Source of the DNA: a phage
DNA length: 64,000 nt
Reading direction: 5' to 3' (one strand)
Sequence record: PV467749.1
Part shown: piece by piece, positions 20,661-29,028 of the stretch
Layout: every line of letters starts with the position of its first letter
Numbering within the stretch: the first letter of the stretch is position 1
Position numbers and translations under genes: made by a program
Notes under the pieces: generated by a model
What the model saw: the letters and a program-made list of their open reading frames with translations, nothing else
Database searches by the model: none
What the model was told of the DNA's origin: nothing

Positions 20661-21476
20661 TTAGATTTTTGGTTGTGATTTTGGTAGTGGAGAACGAGAT
20701 TTAGAAGCGGTATTTTTTGGCTTCGCAACATCTTTCATTTCGCCACGAGCATTTTTACCTAGGTCTTCATCAGTGTGGGACATAGCATCTTCGTTTTCAA
20801 AATCATAATCTACTTGTTTTTCGGAAGCTTTAGCGAATTTCACTGGAGCAACACCTTGAACTGGAGATTTAGCTTCTGGTGCAACTGGGGACTTGGTATT
20901 AACGCCAGCTTTTTCTTTCTTATCAACCGCAGCAACTTGCTTAAGTTTGAAAGACTCACCAACTTTCTCATCACCGAATTGTACATCAGCAAATTCGTCT
21001 TCAGATTCTTCACCATCAGCACCAACTTCAACTTCTTCGTCGTCAGAACCTAGGTCAACTTCATCACCACCGATTTCGTCAAACATTTGTTGTAGGCCAC
21101 GGAAAGCATCTTGAATAGATTCCCATTGGTCTTCGGAAGGAACTTCTGCACCAACTTCTGCTTCAGCGTCAACTTCTTCGCCATCAGCATCAGCAGAGAA
21201 TTCAACTTCTTCTTCTGCACTTTCATCTTCTTCACCTAGGGTGTATTCGATTTCAGCATTTAGACCAGCGTCTGGTTGAACATCAAAGTCTTCGTCAAGT
21301 TTTTCTTCGTCTTTGACTTCAACTTCACATTCTTCTTCGTCCATGCTTTCTTCTAGTTCTTTATTGATTTCTTGAGCTTGCTCAACAAAGTACTTACGCA
21401 TTTTTTTATCAGCAACATCTTGTTCGCCGTTTGCAAACGCTTCAATTGCTTCTTGTAGTAGTTTTAAATTCGCCAT
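20661..21476 (-). CDS. highly acidic prohead core/internal protein (gp68-like by position)
   Basis: About 271 aa, extremely Asp/Glu-rich; between portal and protease genes; ATG 21476 with GGAGGA RBS. Confidence 0.5.
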   Translation of the reverse strand: MANLKLLQEAIEAFANGEQDVADKKMRKYFVEQAQEINKELEESMDEEECEVEVKDEEKLDEDFDVQPDAGLNAEIEYTLGEEDESAEEEVEFSADADGEEVDAEAEVGAEVPSEDQWESIQDAFRGLQQMFDEIGGDEVDLGSDDEEVEVGADGEESEDEFADVQFGDEKVGESFKLKQVAAVDKKEKAGVNTKSPVAPEAKSPVQGVAPVKFAKASEKQVDYDFENEDAMSHTDEDLGKNARGEMKDVAKPKNTASKSRSPLPKSQPKI

Positions 21477-25970: not shown

Positions 25971-26807
25971 ATGGCAATGAACCCACTAGCTAAGTATACT
26001 AAAATTGAAGAACTTGGTACAAAATTGGTCACAAATGGCGTGATTCCTTATAAAGAAGGAGTTCTTGGCTCTAAAGGTATCAAATGTGGCATTTGTGCTC
26101 GTAGTGCACGCGATGAAATGACACTCAATACACCAGATATGCTTCTAAATGGTGATGCAATTGCTCGTGTTATTGAAAACTGCGTACCTAACGTACTTGA
26201 TGCAGATGAACTTTATGTAAATGACGTAGAGCAACTACTTATCGCTATTAAAGTAGCTTCTAAAGAAGAATCATATGATATTAATGTGACATGTCCTGAA
26301 TGTAACAAAGAAGGCCGTTTTGAGCGTAGCTTATCATATCTACTAGAAACAGCACATACTTTCAGTGAAGTTCCTACTGTACAATTGGATAATGGACTAA
26401 GTTTAGAGTTTAGACCACTTACTTGGAAGGAATATTCTAACTTCGCAGAAAGAATGTTTACAGAACAACAAAAAACTAAATTCCTTGAAACTGCCGAAAT
26501 GGAGCAGGAAGAAAAAGTTAAAGTGTTTGGTGAAGTATTTGAAAGTATGGCACAACTCAACTTTGATATGATCGCAGGAGTTATTGCTAAAGTAATTACT
26601 CCTGAAGGTGATGAAGTAACTGAAAACGAATTCATTTCTGAATGGCTAGGTCAGCAGTCCAAAGGAACACTTAAAATAATTCGTGAAAAAATGGATGAAG
26701 TACTTGAAATTGGTGTTTCCCATACTATGGAAGTTGAATGCAGTGACTGTAATCATCAATGGGAAATTAATGGACTGAAATATGACCCAAGTCATTTTTT
26801 CGCATAA
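25971..26807 (+). CDS. hypothetical protein with two CxxC zinc-ribbon motifs (279 aa)
   Basis: ATG 25971 with GGAG upstream (track ORF starts at TTG 25902); CGIC...CPEC and CSDC motifs. Confidence 0.6.
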   Translation: MAMNPLAKYTKIEELGTKLVTNGVIPYKEGVLGSKGIKCGICARSARDEMTLNTPDMLLNGDAIARVIENCVPNVLDADELYVNDVEQLLIAIKVASKEESYDINVTCPECNKEGRFERSLSYLLETAHTFSEVPTVQLDNGLSLEFRPLTWKEYSNFAERMFTEQQKTKFLETAEMEQEEKVKVFGEVFESMAQLNFDMIAGVIAKVITPEGDEVTENEFISEWLGQQSKGTLKIIREKMDEVLEIGVSHTMEVECSDCNHQWEINGLKYDPSHFFA

Positions 26808-27016
26808 TGCTTCTCCACTCATCTCCTGAAGAAATACAAGAAGTACTTAAGGAATTTGAGTTGAATAAGTCAGATATTAAAACTGCATTAATGGAGTGTT
26901 CTGTTTATATGGAAAGTGTTGATTACGGAACACTACTTAATATGCCACTAATTGATAGAGACTTATTAGTTAAGTCTTTTAATAAGAAAATTAAAAAACA
27001 AAACGAGAAGCACTAA
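26807..27016 (+). CDS. hypothetical small protein (69 aa)
   Basis: Start overlaps upstream stop (TAATG); followed by a strong terminator. Confidence 0.45.
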   Translation: MLLHSSPEEIQEVLKEFELNKSDIKTALMECSVYMESVDYGTLLNMPLIDRDLLVKSFNKKIKKQNEKH

Positions 27017-27025
27017 CTCACAAGG

Positions 27026-27054
27026 AGCCAGCACATTGTTGCTGGTTTTTTTTT
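27026..27054 (+). terminator. rho-independent terminator (stem CCAGCA/TGCTGG, T9 run)
   Basis: Hairpin followed by nine T residues immediately after the 69-aa ORF. Confidence 0.8.
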
Positions 27055-27055
27055 G

Positions 27056-27854
27056 GTTTTAAACTACAGAATTGATTGAATTGAATTATGAAAGGAATTA
27101 ATTATTTTATAGTGAACTCATCTAACTCATTTCATTCGTTAGCTGAAGAATATTCGTTACTACGTAACTCATATTCATTTCTTATAATTAATTATAAAGA
27201 ACTTTAAAAGATTTAATACTTGACGGGATTTGTTGAAGACATTTTCATCCCCCCGCAGGGGAATGAAGACAATAAAAAAGAGACAATTAAGTCTCTTAAT
27301 TCTTGACGCTGATGGTTTCAGCATTTATTGTATTGCGAATTTCTTAAAATTCATTAAGAACGAAAGCGGGTTGCTCTGTTTCTCTCTATCGCAGTCATGT
27401 GCAACGGTCGTCAGTCTTAATCATCCTGACACTCACCTGAAAGTCTATACAATCAAACTTCAGGCTGTTTATTAAATCACTTAATAAACTCCCTTAGCAA
27501 ATCTGGTAAGGTGCGATCCTTATACATCTATCGAGGAACTCTCTGTATGCTTATCGGAGTTCTTTATTGAGCCGTGTCGCCGTGAGGGGTTCAAACTATG
27601 CCCACATCTAACGGGTTTCTTCTGCTCATCGCACTGTTGAACTGCTCATCTGCCATCTACATTTTCGATAGGATCAGGTTCTAATTTATATGCATTTCTG
27701 CATTCAACAGGATTGTCATCACTACAATTAACATTATAGCACCAAATTCAAAAGTGTCTCACTATTATGATAAAAAATTTATAAAAAGTACATAATTCTT
27801 GAACATTGAAGTAACGCATAAATATTTTGATAAGAATTAGTTTAGTGGGGATTT
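27056..27854. other. 0.8-kb non-coding island; core (about 27230-27720) noticeably more GC-rich than surrounding genome; function unknown
   Basis: No ORF over 81 aa in any frame; stops in all frames; local GC about 48-50% versus about 38-40% elsewhere; strong hairpin TTCATCCCC-CGCAG-GGGGAATGAA at about 27246-27269; TTGACG repeats; no tRNA cloverleaf found by eye. Confidence 0.4.
27071..27180. repeat. cluster of short direct repeats (ATTGA x3; AACTCAT x3) in AT-rich spacer
   Basis: ATTGATTGAATTGAATT at 27071-27087 and AACTCAT at 27115, 27124 and 27166. Confidence 0.35.
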
Positions 27855-28340
27855 ATGAAGAAAAGATTAAAAGATAGTAAAGAAGCTGCAAACTATCGAA
27901 ATGAATTACTAAAGAAGCAAAAAGGAATTGATCCTATAATTAAGGAACCAATAACTAAGCCAGTACTTGATCACTATCACTTCGAGAATCAACATTGTCG
28001 CGGAGTACTCCAGAATGAGATAAACGCCTTTGAGGGTAAGGTTTCCAACGCATGGAACCGATATGGAAAGCATTTAACTGATATGCCATTACATGAAGTA
28101 CTAAGAAACCTTGCAGATTATCTTGAAAAGAACAATAATATCCCACTGGAAGAACAGGTGATTCATCACACGGCACTAACTGTGGATGTAAACAAGTTTA
28201 AAAGGCTCCCTGCAACGCGTCAGAACGAGATATTGGGGTTATGCGGTATAGAGCCATTACCTAATACAAAAGAACGCTCAAAGAGAGCTAGAGAGCTTAT
28301 TAAGAAAGGAATTCTCAATATAAATGAATACAAAAAATGA
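27855..28340 (+). CDS. endonuclease VII-like nuclease (T4 gp49 family), Cys-poor variant
   Basis: VLDHYHFENQHCRGVLQNEINAFEG parallels the T4 endonuclease VII catalytic core (LDHDHELNG...RGLLCNLCNAAEG) but the zinc-ligand cysteines are replaced; GGGGA RBS. Confidence 0.6.
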   Translation: MKKRLKDSKEAANYRNELLKKQKGIDPIIKEPITKPVLDHYHFENQHCRGVLQNEINAFEGKVSNAWNRYGKHLTDMPLHEVLRNLADYLEKNNNIPLEEQVIHHTALTVDVNKFKRLPATRQNEILGLCGIEPLPNTKERSKRARELIKKGILNINEYKK

Positions 28341-29028
28341 TATTTTTATAGATAAAGCAAATATAAAACATAACAACAAATATGAATATACATTAGTTGA
28401 GTATGTAAATAATTACACTAAAGTTAAAATTATATGTAAGAAACATGGTATGTTTTCACAAACTCCAAATCACCATTTAAAAGGAAGTGGATGTAATGAA
28501 TGTTACTTAGAAAGCAAGCACGATACTAAAGATGACTTCATAAAAAAATCCATGAAAGTTCATGGTGAATTATATGATTACTCAAATGTGATATATAAAT
28601 CTTCAAAGAAAAAAGTTGAAATTATATGCAATAAACATGGTTCTTTTTATCAGAGGCCACATGAACATATATCAGGTAAAGGTTGTTCAGAATGTGGAGT
28701 TGGTGGTTACAAGAGAAGTAAACCAGGTCGTTTATATGTATATGAAGTTTTACAAGACGACAAAACTATAGCATACAAATACGGAATAACTAATGGTACT
28801 ATTAATAATAGAAAATATTACCATGAGTATCACTCTAACTTAAAATTTAATTGTGTTTATGAACTATATGATGAAGATGGTAATGTTCCATATAATATAG
28901 AAAAAGCAATAAAAGCTGGCATGAAAAGTGTTTTTTTATCAAAAACTATTTTAGAAGTTGGGTATACCGAAACGATAGAACCGTCTTTATATGAAGATTT
29001 GATTAATATAATAAAAAAAGGGAGCTAA
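28324..29028 (+). CDS. homing-endonuclease-like protein: two Cys/His zinc-ribbon modules + GIY-YIG/T5orf172-like domain
   Basis: Modules KYEYTLVEY...IICKKHGMFSQTPNHHLKGSGCNEC and LYDYSNVIY...IICNKHGSFYQRPHEHISGKGCSEC, then GRLYVYEV...AYKYGITNG...NNRKYYHEY (GIY..YIG..R); overlaps Endo VII-like gene by 17 nt. Confidence 0.6.
   Translation: MNTKNDIFIDKANIKHNNKYEYTLVEYVNNYTKVKIICKKHGMFSQTPNHHLKGSGCNECYLESKHDTKDDFIKKSMKVHGELYDYSNVIYKSSKKKVEIICNKHGSFYQRPHEHISGKGCSECGVGGYKRSKPGRLYVYEVLQDDKTIAYKYGITNGTINNRKYYHEYHSNLKFNCVYELYDEDGNVPYNIEKAIKAGMKSVFLSKTILEVGYTETIEPSLYEDLINIIKKGS

Follow-up and report, generated by a model that had tools for sequence, protein, structure and literature searches.

The interval 27056-27854 of a 64,000-nt stretch of phage DNA (sequence record PV467749.1; the whole stretch is hereafter called the window, and all positions are those of the window) appears, with high confidence and on comparative grounds, to be a gene on the minus strand for a structured RNA. 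This large non-coding RNA gene is predicted to run from about 27726 to about 27115, so that one unit of ~610 nt fills nearly the whole interval, and its identification draws on nhmmer homologs, on covariation and on the fold; in relatives the RNA is 520-680 nt long. The window copy lies next to an endonuclease VII gene and is the paralog called c1 in a family for which ~130 loci in total were confirmed as homologs by nhmmer, which recovered all copies. A previous account of the interval, made from the sequence without database searches (the sequence-only reading), had put a structured non-coding RNA first among its candidates, and covariation now strongly supports that choice; what it overlooked is the minus strand, the gene's own promoter, the fact that nearly the whole interval is one gene, and the multi-copy family.

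The evidence which carries this conclusion is the pattern of base changes among the family members. In a tool-made alignment of 47 unique family sequences (alignment A2), 13 helices with 65 pairs were scored, and standard pairs are found in 98.3% of cells versus 77.3% in shuffles and 40-46% with slid partners; compensatory changes on both sides of a pair occur at 50 of the 65 pairs and in 549 cells, and none of 500 shuffles attains any of the covariation measures, figures to be read with the reservation that the 13-helix structure was derived from the same sequences used to test it and is thus biased in its favour. However, pairs which show three or four Watson-Crick types lie far beyond such a derivation bias, as at pair 27559/27539, where GC occurs 25 times, CG 9 times, AU 7 times and UA 6 times. 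The same alignment data tell which strand is folded. Ten helices hold 2192 Watson-Crick pairs, 215 G-U pairs and 14 A-C pairs, and a larger set including copies from integrated elements gives 308 G-U versus 65 A-C, so that G-U is tolerated while A-C hardly is, and the folded strand is therefore the minus strand of the window. This strand-specific tolerance of G-U, together with the compensatory changes, excludes a double-stranded DNA site, and the tetraloops of GNRA and UNCG type which recur among the copies indicate RNA rather than single-stranded DNA. In addition, the 612 nt of the minus strand fold with a minimum free energy (MFE) of -154.2 kcal/mol (z = -4.9) into a structure that recovers most of the covariation-supported helices, and the plus strand gives -147.4 kcal/mol (z = -4.1).

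As for protein coding, the sequence-only reading had seen no credible open reading frame (ORF) in the interval, and this is borne out. The longest ORFs have 81 aa (TTG start, plus strand) and 49 aa (minus strand, 27324-27175), and three ORFs of 39-81 aa in the interval have no Pfam match. The 49-aa frame, which was the sole minus-strand ORF traced, without a systematic scan for small ORFs, is not kept in the other copies of the alignment, and the family alignments contain indels that are not multiples of three. On the other hand, a GC content about 10 points above the background, as had been estimated by eye, does not hold: the whole interval has 34.0% GC, below the window mean of 36.5%, and only its 515-nt core (27212-27726) with 40.0% lies above the mean, by just 3.5 points. 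This value is reached by 13.5% of equal-sized stretches, and the core is conspicuous only against its own flanks of 23% GC. The short direct repeats that had been noticed do exist as two-copy matches of 9-18 nt, but they are no more than chance expects, and a repeat search found no second copy of the interval within the 64-kb window.

The covariance-model scan and the RNA folding by which the sequence-only reading had proposed to check its candidate gave, besides the fold described above, 0 matches to Rfam 15 (4227 models) at gathering thresholds over the whole window and both strands; these models include group I and II introns, RNase P, tmRNA, 6S, ROOL, GOLLD, OLE, HEARO, raiA and riboswitches. 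With E values up to 10, for the region and 12 other family loci, only terminator-like fragments matched models of small RNAs. ARAGORN reported 0 tRNA or tmRNA genes in the window, in agreement with the earlier failure to fold a tRNA cloverleaf by eye, and no account of the family came up in the literature under topic, phage name or sequence string. This is a large structured RNA family for which we found no prior description in Rfam 15 or in the literature.

Regarding the architecture, the fold deduced from the aligned copies consists of a 5' domain with a three-way junction, a series of central hairpins, and a 3' domain closed by a long-range helix between a loop and a distant strand and containing an H-type pseudoknot; downstream of the 3' domain stand a G/C hairpin with a UNCG-type loop and then two more hairpins. 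Long unpaired blocks, namely GAUAGAYRUAU, CACGGCRAYRYGGC, AAGAAACCCGUUAG, UAAGGGAG, CGACCGUUG and GAAACNGNNNAACCCGC, are invariant. All elements described here are on the minus strand. The 5' domain (27634-27710) is closed by helix H1 (27710-27703 with 27641-27634), in which 7 of 8 pairs vary on both sides, and the two hairpins of its junction, one capped by GAAA (27702-27691) and a second one at 27677-27650, covary and are found in the MFE fold; GNRA loops recur in other copies. The central region (27507-27628), in which AAGAAACCCGUUAG, CACGGCRAYRYGGC and GAUAGAYRUAU are the invariant unpaired parts, has helix H2 (27628-27624 with 27572-27568; 100% paired, 3 covarying pairs), hairpin H3 (27562-27557 with 27541-27536; 99.6% paired, 5 of 5 pairs covarying) and hairpin H4 (27522-27518 with 27511-27507), whose stem reads UAAGG/CCUUA, UAGG/CCUA, UGAG/CUCA or UUGAGU/ACUCAA in different copies of A2. 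It is followed by the single-stranded block UAAGGGAG (27489-27496), which resembles a Shine-Dalgarno sequence and in which AAGGGA is invariant in 47 of 47 copies; neither a conserved partner strand nor a conserved downstream ORF was found for this block.

The 3' pseudoknotted domain (27327-27466) comprises helices H5 to H11, and two of them, H6 and H8, cross others. The loop of hairpin H5 (27465-27435) provides one strand of H6 (27453-27447 with 27333-27327; 99.7% paired, 6 of 7 pairs covarying), and H5 and H6 could also be alternative conformers. Helix H7 (27431-27428 with 27412-27409) is followed by H8, in which 27405-27401 pairs with the loop of H10 at 27374-27370 to form the H-type pseudoknot, by H9 (27393-27389 with 27338-27334) and by H10 itself (27386-27382 with 27366-27362), each of the three being 100% paired with 3-4 covarying pairs; the small helix H11 (27359-27357 with 27344-27342) completes the domain. 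An inserted module of ~40 nt, GCGAU..GAUUUUUGUACAAUAUAGAUCCGUCCAAAAUUU, occupies two different places in the RNA depending on the paralog (columns ~370-400 and 535-565 of A2), for example in the phage UE-S1 (L001) and in the second copy of phage 121Q (L024, c2), and the window copy is without it. The loop of the module, UACAAU, is complementary to the 5' strand of H6, and the module may be a movable structural part or an alternative pairing partner.

Beyond the 3' domain, a terminator scan detected a terminator-like hairpin (27297-27278) with a U tract (27277-27272), and 5 of 5 of its pairs covary where it is present. However, it is gapped in 23 of the 47 rows of A2, including paralogs of the c3 and c4 types, and conservation runs on past it; being absent from roughly half of the copies, it is neither a universal 3' end nor family-defining. 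The strong 10-bp hairpin to which the sequence-only reading had drawn attention turned out to be helix 13 of the structure, UUCAUUCCCC-UGCG-GGGGGAUGAA (27267-27244), which exists in all copies and is 99.5% paired. Its sole stem variation, from C-G to U-G, fits the minus strand only, and its loops, UGCG, UGUG, UUCG or AGCG, are tetraloops of RNA type. Two copies of a motif AUC(N)CGUCA(A/G) lie within 27220-27313 (CGUCAA at 27308-27303 and 27225-27220) with GUCA invariant at both places, and a third copy sits in an insertion module of other paralogs. The two TTGACG repeats that had been noticed on the plus strand, at 27220-27225 and 27303-27308, are indeed there and are the complement of this conserved RNA motif, CGUCA(A/G). 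To take them as -35 boxes of plus-strand promoters is ruled out by the CTGACG which most relatives read at these places on the plus strand and by the strand evidence. A hairpin with a GUUAA loop after the second CGUCA motif is found in only 21 of 65 sequences, so it is no core feature.

Two hairpins make up the 3' extension, a long one (27176-27148, GAAUAU..GUUAC-GUA-GUAAC..AUAUUC) and a terminal one (27148-27118), both being present in the RNA fold of the window. This two-hairpin module is kept with differing stem sequences in copies from jumbo phages and from integrated elements, a loop motif ACGAAGUGA recurs in it in many copies, and its median MFE z-score is -2.6 (61 sequences). A block in this 3' part reads TTGCCT-N16-TATAAT, and TTGACA occurs in the terminal hairpin; a reading of these as promoters of a downstream gene was rejected as the main explanation, because the integrated-element copies keep the hairpins with different sequences.

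The RNA gene has a promoter of its own. A promoter scan placed, on the minus strand, a -35-like element TGAGAC(A) at 27761-27755 and an extended -10 element of sigma-70 type, TGCTATAAT, at 27741-27733, which would start transcription near 27726. Of 47 family copies, 46 have a perfect TATAAT and 46 the TG in front of it (TGnTATAAT), and the -35 region reads TGAAAC(G/A), TGAGACA or GGGACA. In phages CBB and GAP32, a second promoter class with the -35 element TGAAACG was described, and many CBB promoters of this class fall in the genome region of DNA-synthesis proteins (Buttimer et al., PMC5259590). The promoter of the RNA belongs to this class. In 121Q the promoter motif is found at 17 sites, including just upstream of the genes for SSB, primase, exonuclease and the late sigma factor, and in front of three RNA copies; this type of promoter is also that of the integrated-element copies. 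The pattern TG[GA][GA]ACA-N13-14-TGnTATAAT also occurs at two further sites in the window, 968 and 33122, both on the minus strand, and it probably defines a temporal class. Copies of the c3 type and some of the c2 type (L026, which is 121Q c3, L032 and L054) carry a hairpin followed by U6-7 between TGnTATAAT and H1, and this hairpin could be the terminator of the upstream gene or a 5' attenuator.

The family extends far beyond the close relatives of the window. The window belongs to a jumbo coliphage of Asteriusvirus type, with 99.8% identity to phages Turkey3, BF17 and fEgEco12 and 92% identity to 121Q and PBECO4. In low-stringency blastn searches, a ~480-nt core (27212-27696) is 68-76% identical in distant Rak2-like jumbo phages, with matches in GAP32, CBB, Serratia BF, Yersinia fHe-Yen9-04, Salmonella Munch and 7t3, and Erwinia, Klebsiella and Xanthomonas phages, while the flanking proteins across the same genera are just 26-60% identical. 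This is the comparison with related phages which the sequence-only reading had suggested, and such conservation of the core is beyond chance; the interval is not a spacer. In each jumbo-phage record, 4-5 places match. IMG/VR yielded 52 loci in pattern scans, 49 of which nhmmer confirmed as full-length and 47 of which are unique; locus L059, which a short pattern had brought in, proved to be a chance match within a 185-aa ORF and was left out. Within the phage collection, matches were confined to Rak2-like jumbo phages.

The whole genome of 121Q has four copies, all co-oriented: c1 (326.5-327.3 kb) between endonuclease VII and gp595, which is the ortholog of the window copy, c2 (247.5-248.1 kb) between gp515 and gp517, c3 (192.8-193.3 kb) between gp415 and gp416, and c4 (90.3-90.7 kb) after the sigma factor gp167. 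The clade of GAP32, CBB, BF and Yen has a fifth paralog type. Clustering and comparison of the flanks showed the paralogs to be ancient: each makes up an orthologous group, represented once per genome and with neighbours kept across genera, and has held its position in the gene order since before the genera split. At the c2-c5 loci a co-oriented ORF with a ribosome-binding site begins 15-30 nt past the terminal hairpin, and at the c1 loci there is no co-oriented downstream gene. A gap of ~2 kb free of annotated genes among tandem small ORFs, at 135194-137161 of 121Q (35194-37161 of L005), holds only two short tandem repeats and no match to the family profile. Up to four "hypothetical proteins" are annotated under the match in PV611058, PP886230, OR699282, PQ390715 and other records, a count from queries that also reach into the beginning of the endonuclease VII gene; in 121Q, g516 is annotated on the c2 copy, and UE-S1 marks part of its copy as a repeat_region. 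The protein calls on the RNA gene are probably spurious.

What is more, the family is also found in bacterial genomes. One scan each of a genome and a metagenome collection gave 80 loci, all confirmed as family members by nhmmer. Seven loci are in bacterial assemblies, namely those of Citrobacter amalonaticus, Enterobacter chinensis, Silvania, Buttiauxella, the isolate RIT714, an uncultured metagenome-assembled genome and a 2.8-kb contig labelled Clostridium; RIT714 and the uncultured genome are Enterobacteriaceae assemblies. In Citrobacter and Enterobacter the order is hofB, ppdD, a large serine recombinase, the RNA and a convergent CI/LexA-like repressor. The integrated elements of Enterobacteriaceae have one full-length RNA copy beside the integrase, with a CI-like repressor in most of those examined and with no co-oriented downstream gene, and a metagenomic element (L081) has, further on, a Cro-like helix-turn-helix protein and the Kiwa defence protein KwaB. 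E. coli LR-29-1 (L145, NZ_AP027515.1, 3472260-3486515) also has a full-length copy (E = 6e-152), in an unannotated 1.4-kb gap of a ~10-kb island between ffs, the gene of the signal recognition particle RNA, and ybaA. The island contains a tyrosine integrase split by IS3, ORFs of no known function and DUF4326, DUF488 and DuOB genes, with ~600 nt more of non-coding DNA after the gap that holds the RNA, and it could be a satellite or a defence island. The integrated-element copies keep every helix with fresh compensatory changes; H6, for example, is AUUGUAU/AUACAAU in the window versus UUCAUAC/GUAUGAA in the Buttiauxella copy (L065). Elsewhere the family is rare: with a query of the prophage type, only 2 of 5426 complete E. 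coli genomes matched, and a plasmid search gave no match to the family. When 12 proteins of two integrated elements were compared with jumbo-phage DNA, only the DUF4326 protein had a homolog, and no protein gene was seen to neighbour the RNA consistently in both jumbo phages and integrated elements.

In the window, the interval is flanked by a 69-aa ORF (26807-27016) with its terminator on one side and by the endonuclease VII gene (27855-28340) on the other, the flanks that the sequence-only reading had described. A terminator scan confirms the intrinsic terminator of the convergent 69-aa ORF on the plus strand at 27022-27051, outside the RNA gene, and the annotations of G17 and UE-S1 label its counterpart a terminator. 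The endonuclease VII gene, on the plus strand and divergent from the RNA promoter, has a Pfam Endonuclease_7 match below the curated cut-off, its protein is 77% identical to gp594 of 121Q, and its adjacency to the RNA is kept in every jumbo genome sampled. Upstream of it, at 27818-27824 on the plus strand, stands ATAAATA, which matches a late-promoter-like motif of CBB and GAP32 (PMC5259590), and from this match endonuclease VII would probably be a late gene diverging from the RNA promoter. The second member of the pair of endonuclease VII and homing-endonuclease-like genes is real as well: a 234-aa ORF on the plus strand (28324-29028), with a treble-clef zinc-finger domain (DUF4379) and the look of a homing endonuclease, lies between endonuclease VII and an SbcC-like gene. 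It is missing at that place in 121Q, G17 and UE-S1 and is thus a lineage-specific insertion. Elsewhere in the window, at 20984-21343, there are six copies of an imperfect 36-nt direct repeat, 64-75% identical to the reference copy and rich in CTTC and CAGC.

Concerning the function, we think that host RNA polymerase would start near 27726 from the extended -10 promoter, whose class also drives replication genes, and that the product would work in trans as a folded RNA. The invariant junctions and loops would build a compact tertiary core which binds a partner or catalyses a reaction, as in other large ornate RNAs, so the RNA would be a ribonucleoprotein core, a multimeric RNA or a ribozyme aimed at a host factor. 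Action in trans is suggested because the long invariant unpaired blocks and the two or three AUC(N)CGUCA motifs look like a tertiary core or a binding platform, and because the stand-alone copies have no downstream gene. The RNA and the host clade are nearly all that jumbo phages and integrated elements have in common, and so, as far as gene content can tell, the partner would most likely be a conserved component of the host and not a protein of the phage. For the mechanism alone, trans-acting and directed to the host, our confidence is moderate to low, and the combined statement, a minus-strand structured RNA gene with such a role, we regard as somewhat better than an even bet. A more ambitious proposal is that this RNA is the first of a new ornate-RNA class with an activity of its own, as ribozyme, ribonucleoprotein core or multimer, exchanged between giant lytic phages and small integrated elements of Gammaproteobacteria and acting on a conserved host component, its paralogs being distinct specificities or subunits of one assembly; we offer it tentatively, at rather less than an even chance.

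Several points weigh against the combined statement. The ends and the stability of the RNA are predictions. At the c2-c5 loci, where the next ORF follows the terminal hairpin so closely, no terminator stands between them, and these copies may be transcribed as a long leader or released by processing of a longer RNA. The U-tract hairpin that c3-type copies and some c2-type ones carry between the -10 element and H1 is unexpected in a simple unit of promoter and RNA. No partner, ligand or catalytic motif was identified, and the argument for a host partner rests on two integrated elements compared with phage DNA. Besides, 4-5 dispersed, co-oriented and position-fixed copies fit a role in cis at least as well as one in trans.

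The main rival takes each copy as a cis-acting origin element, from which a structured primer transcript would form an R-loop and prime the leading strand, on the models of T4 oriF and oriG and of ColE1 RNA II; on this view, the single copy in a small integrated element would let a helper jumbo phage replicate the element like a satellite. It is only in this form of a primer transcript that the origin named by the sequence-only reading is left, and for the pac-like site named with it there is no evidence. The 4-5 copies per 350-kb genome, at intervals of 55-110 kb, co-oriented and each fixed in position, suit such a role, as do the promoter class shared with the SSB, primase and exonuclease genes, the conserved G-run/C-run hairpin near the 3' part, the AT-rich (23% GC) flanks, the RNase H and UvsW-like helicase that the phages encode, and the lack of a recognisable replication gene in the ~10-kb E. 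coli island. However, no origin has been mapped in these phages, known primer transcripts need no pseudoknotted structure of ~600 nt in which many unpaired blocks are invariant, the G run is base-paired inside a hairpin, and the RNA of integrated elements belongs to the integrase/repressor module and has no replication functions beside it. In 121Q the cumulative GC skew does not turn at the copies; it goes with the direction of transcription and is uninformative. We judge the origin explanation to be unlikely, with about one chance in five. The RNA might also serve in trans in conflicts between mobile elements, as a decoy or sponge against host defence, or as a mimic by which integrated elements disturb incoming jumbo phages: in integrated elements it adjoins the immunity module and lies near defence cargo (KwaB in L081; DUF4326, DUF488 and DuOB in the E. 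coli island) and is exchanged between unrelated mobile elements, and several diverged paralogs in a phage could match several targets. But all this is evidence from context, Rfam gave no similarity to RNAs of defence systems, and the idea is a special case of the trans-acting, host-directed explanation rather than a separate anatomy, and in this specific form we hold it to be improbable.

Two further explanations are less probable still. A long cis-regulatory leader, whether riboswitch-like, an attenuator or an antiterminator, for the genes downstream of each copy would agree with the ribosome-binding site and ORF within 15-30 nt of the terminal hairpin at c2-c5 and with the internal terminator-like hairpin of some copies. 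This hairpin is missing in the c3 and c4 types, though, the genes downstream of different paralogs are unrelated, the c1 copies and all the integrated-element copies have no co-oriented downstream gene, and the size and pseudoknot content go far beyond known leaders; a leader role is possible at the c2-c5 loci, but it cannot be the general function, and as an overall explanation we consider it quite improbable. The last one, to which we give only a very slight chance, is that the interval is what is left of an intron, of a mobile element or of a decayed protein gene, as the sequence-only reading had also listed, or a site acting at the DNA level, for packaging (pac) or recombination. The multi-copy family would suit this, and so would the homing-endonuclease genes near three copies (HNH genes g170 and g513 in 121Q, ORF 28324-29028 in the window). 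Against it, the positions in the gene order have been held since before the genera split, the element is intergenic with its own promoter, no group I or II intron model matches even at E = 10, and there is neither an ORF remnant nor a Pfam match.

The large, highly structured RNAs of bacteria and phages fall, to our knowledge, into no more than about a dozen classes, of which the older ones (rRNA, RNase P, tmRNA and the self-splicing introns) turned out to be central machines. Since the present RNA occurs in E. coli phages that can be cultured (121Q, PBECO4, phAPEC6, G17 and others) as well as in an island of an E. coli chromosome, it is directly open to genetics, RNA sequencing, structure probing and cryo-electron microscopy. 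Its presence in lytic jumbo phages and in integrated elements which share almost no genes points to a function at the interface of phage and host or of element and element, one that protein-centred annotation has missed, and the database annotation can be corrected where several GenBank records put "hypothetical proteins" on the RNA gene. If the origin explanation were true, the copies would amount to the first map of replication origins in this phage group and would suggest how satellites might exploit them.

Among known systems, the group I introns of T4-like phages are alike in being structured RNAs of a few hundred nt with pseudoknots, in multiple copies and with homing-endonuclease genes nearby. 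In contrast, the new RNA is intergenic between complete genes, with its own promoter and no flanking exons; its H8 crosses H9 and H10, and the loop of H5 pairs with a far strand, which is not the P3-P7 arrangement, and the group I intron model RF00028 gave no match at E up to 10. Non-coding transcripts of similar size are known from PA5oct, a Pseudomonas jumbo phage related to 121Q, RaK2 and GAP32, in which ncRNA001-004, of 236-619 nt, were defined by RNA sequencing, two of them being very abundant (Lood et al. 2020, PMC7318152). In a search limited to the regions of these four transcripts (nhmmer --max), no sequence homology to the RNA family was detected.

With the T4 oriF and oriG RNAs and ColE1 RNA II the new RNA would share that it is a non-coding transcript from a strong promoter. 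T4 origin promoters are of the middle class, which replication genes use as well, and there are several origins per T4 genome; ColE1 RNA II has ~550 nt, and its folding matters for its function. The T4 origin RNAs are not known to be conserved structured RNAs, nor the T4 origins to be homologous to each other.

The last comparison is with ROOL, GOLLD and OLE, large ornate non-coding RNAs associated with bacteria and phages, which are Rfam families and the subject of cryo-electron microscopy work (PMC12286853). Many ROOL and GOLLD genes lie in phages or prophages. The new RNA differs from all three in that no covariance model of any of them matches it, in that its hosts are Gammaproteobacteria and their jumbo phages, and in that it has 4-5 diverged paralogs per genome, a feature we do not know for ROOL, GOLLD or OLE. 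It resembles them, on the other hand, in a function that is not evident from sequence and in its whole build, with a length in the range of 500-800 nt, many helices, pseudoknots and long invariant unpaired blocks.

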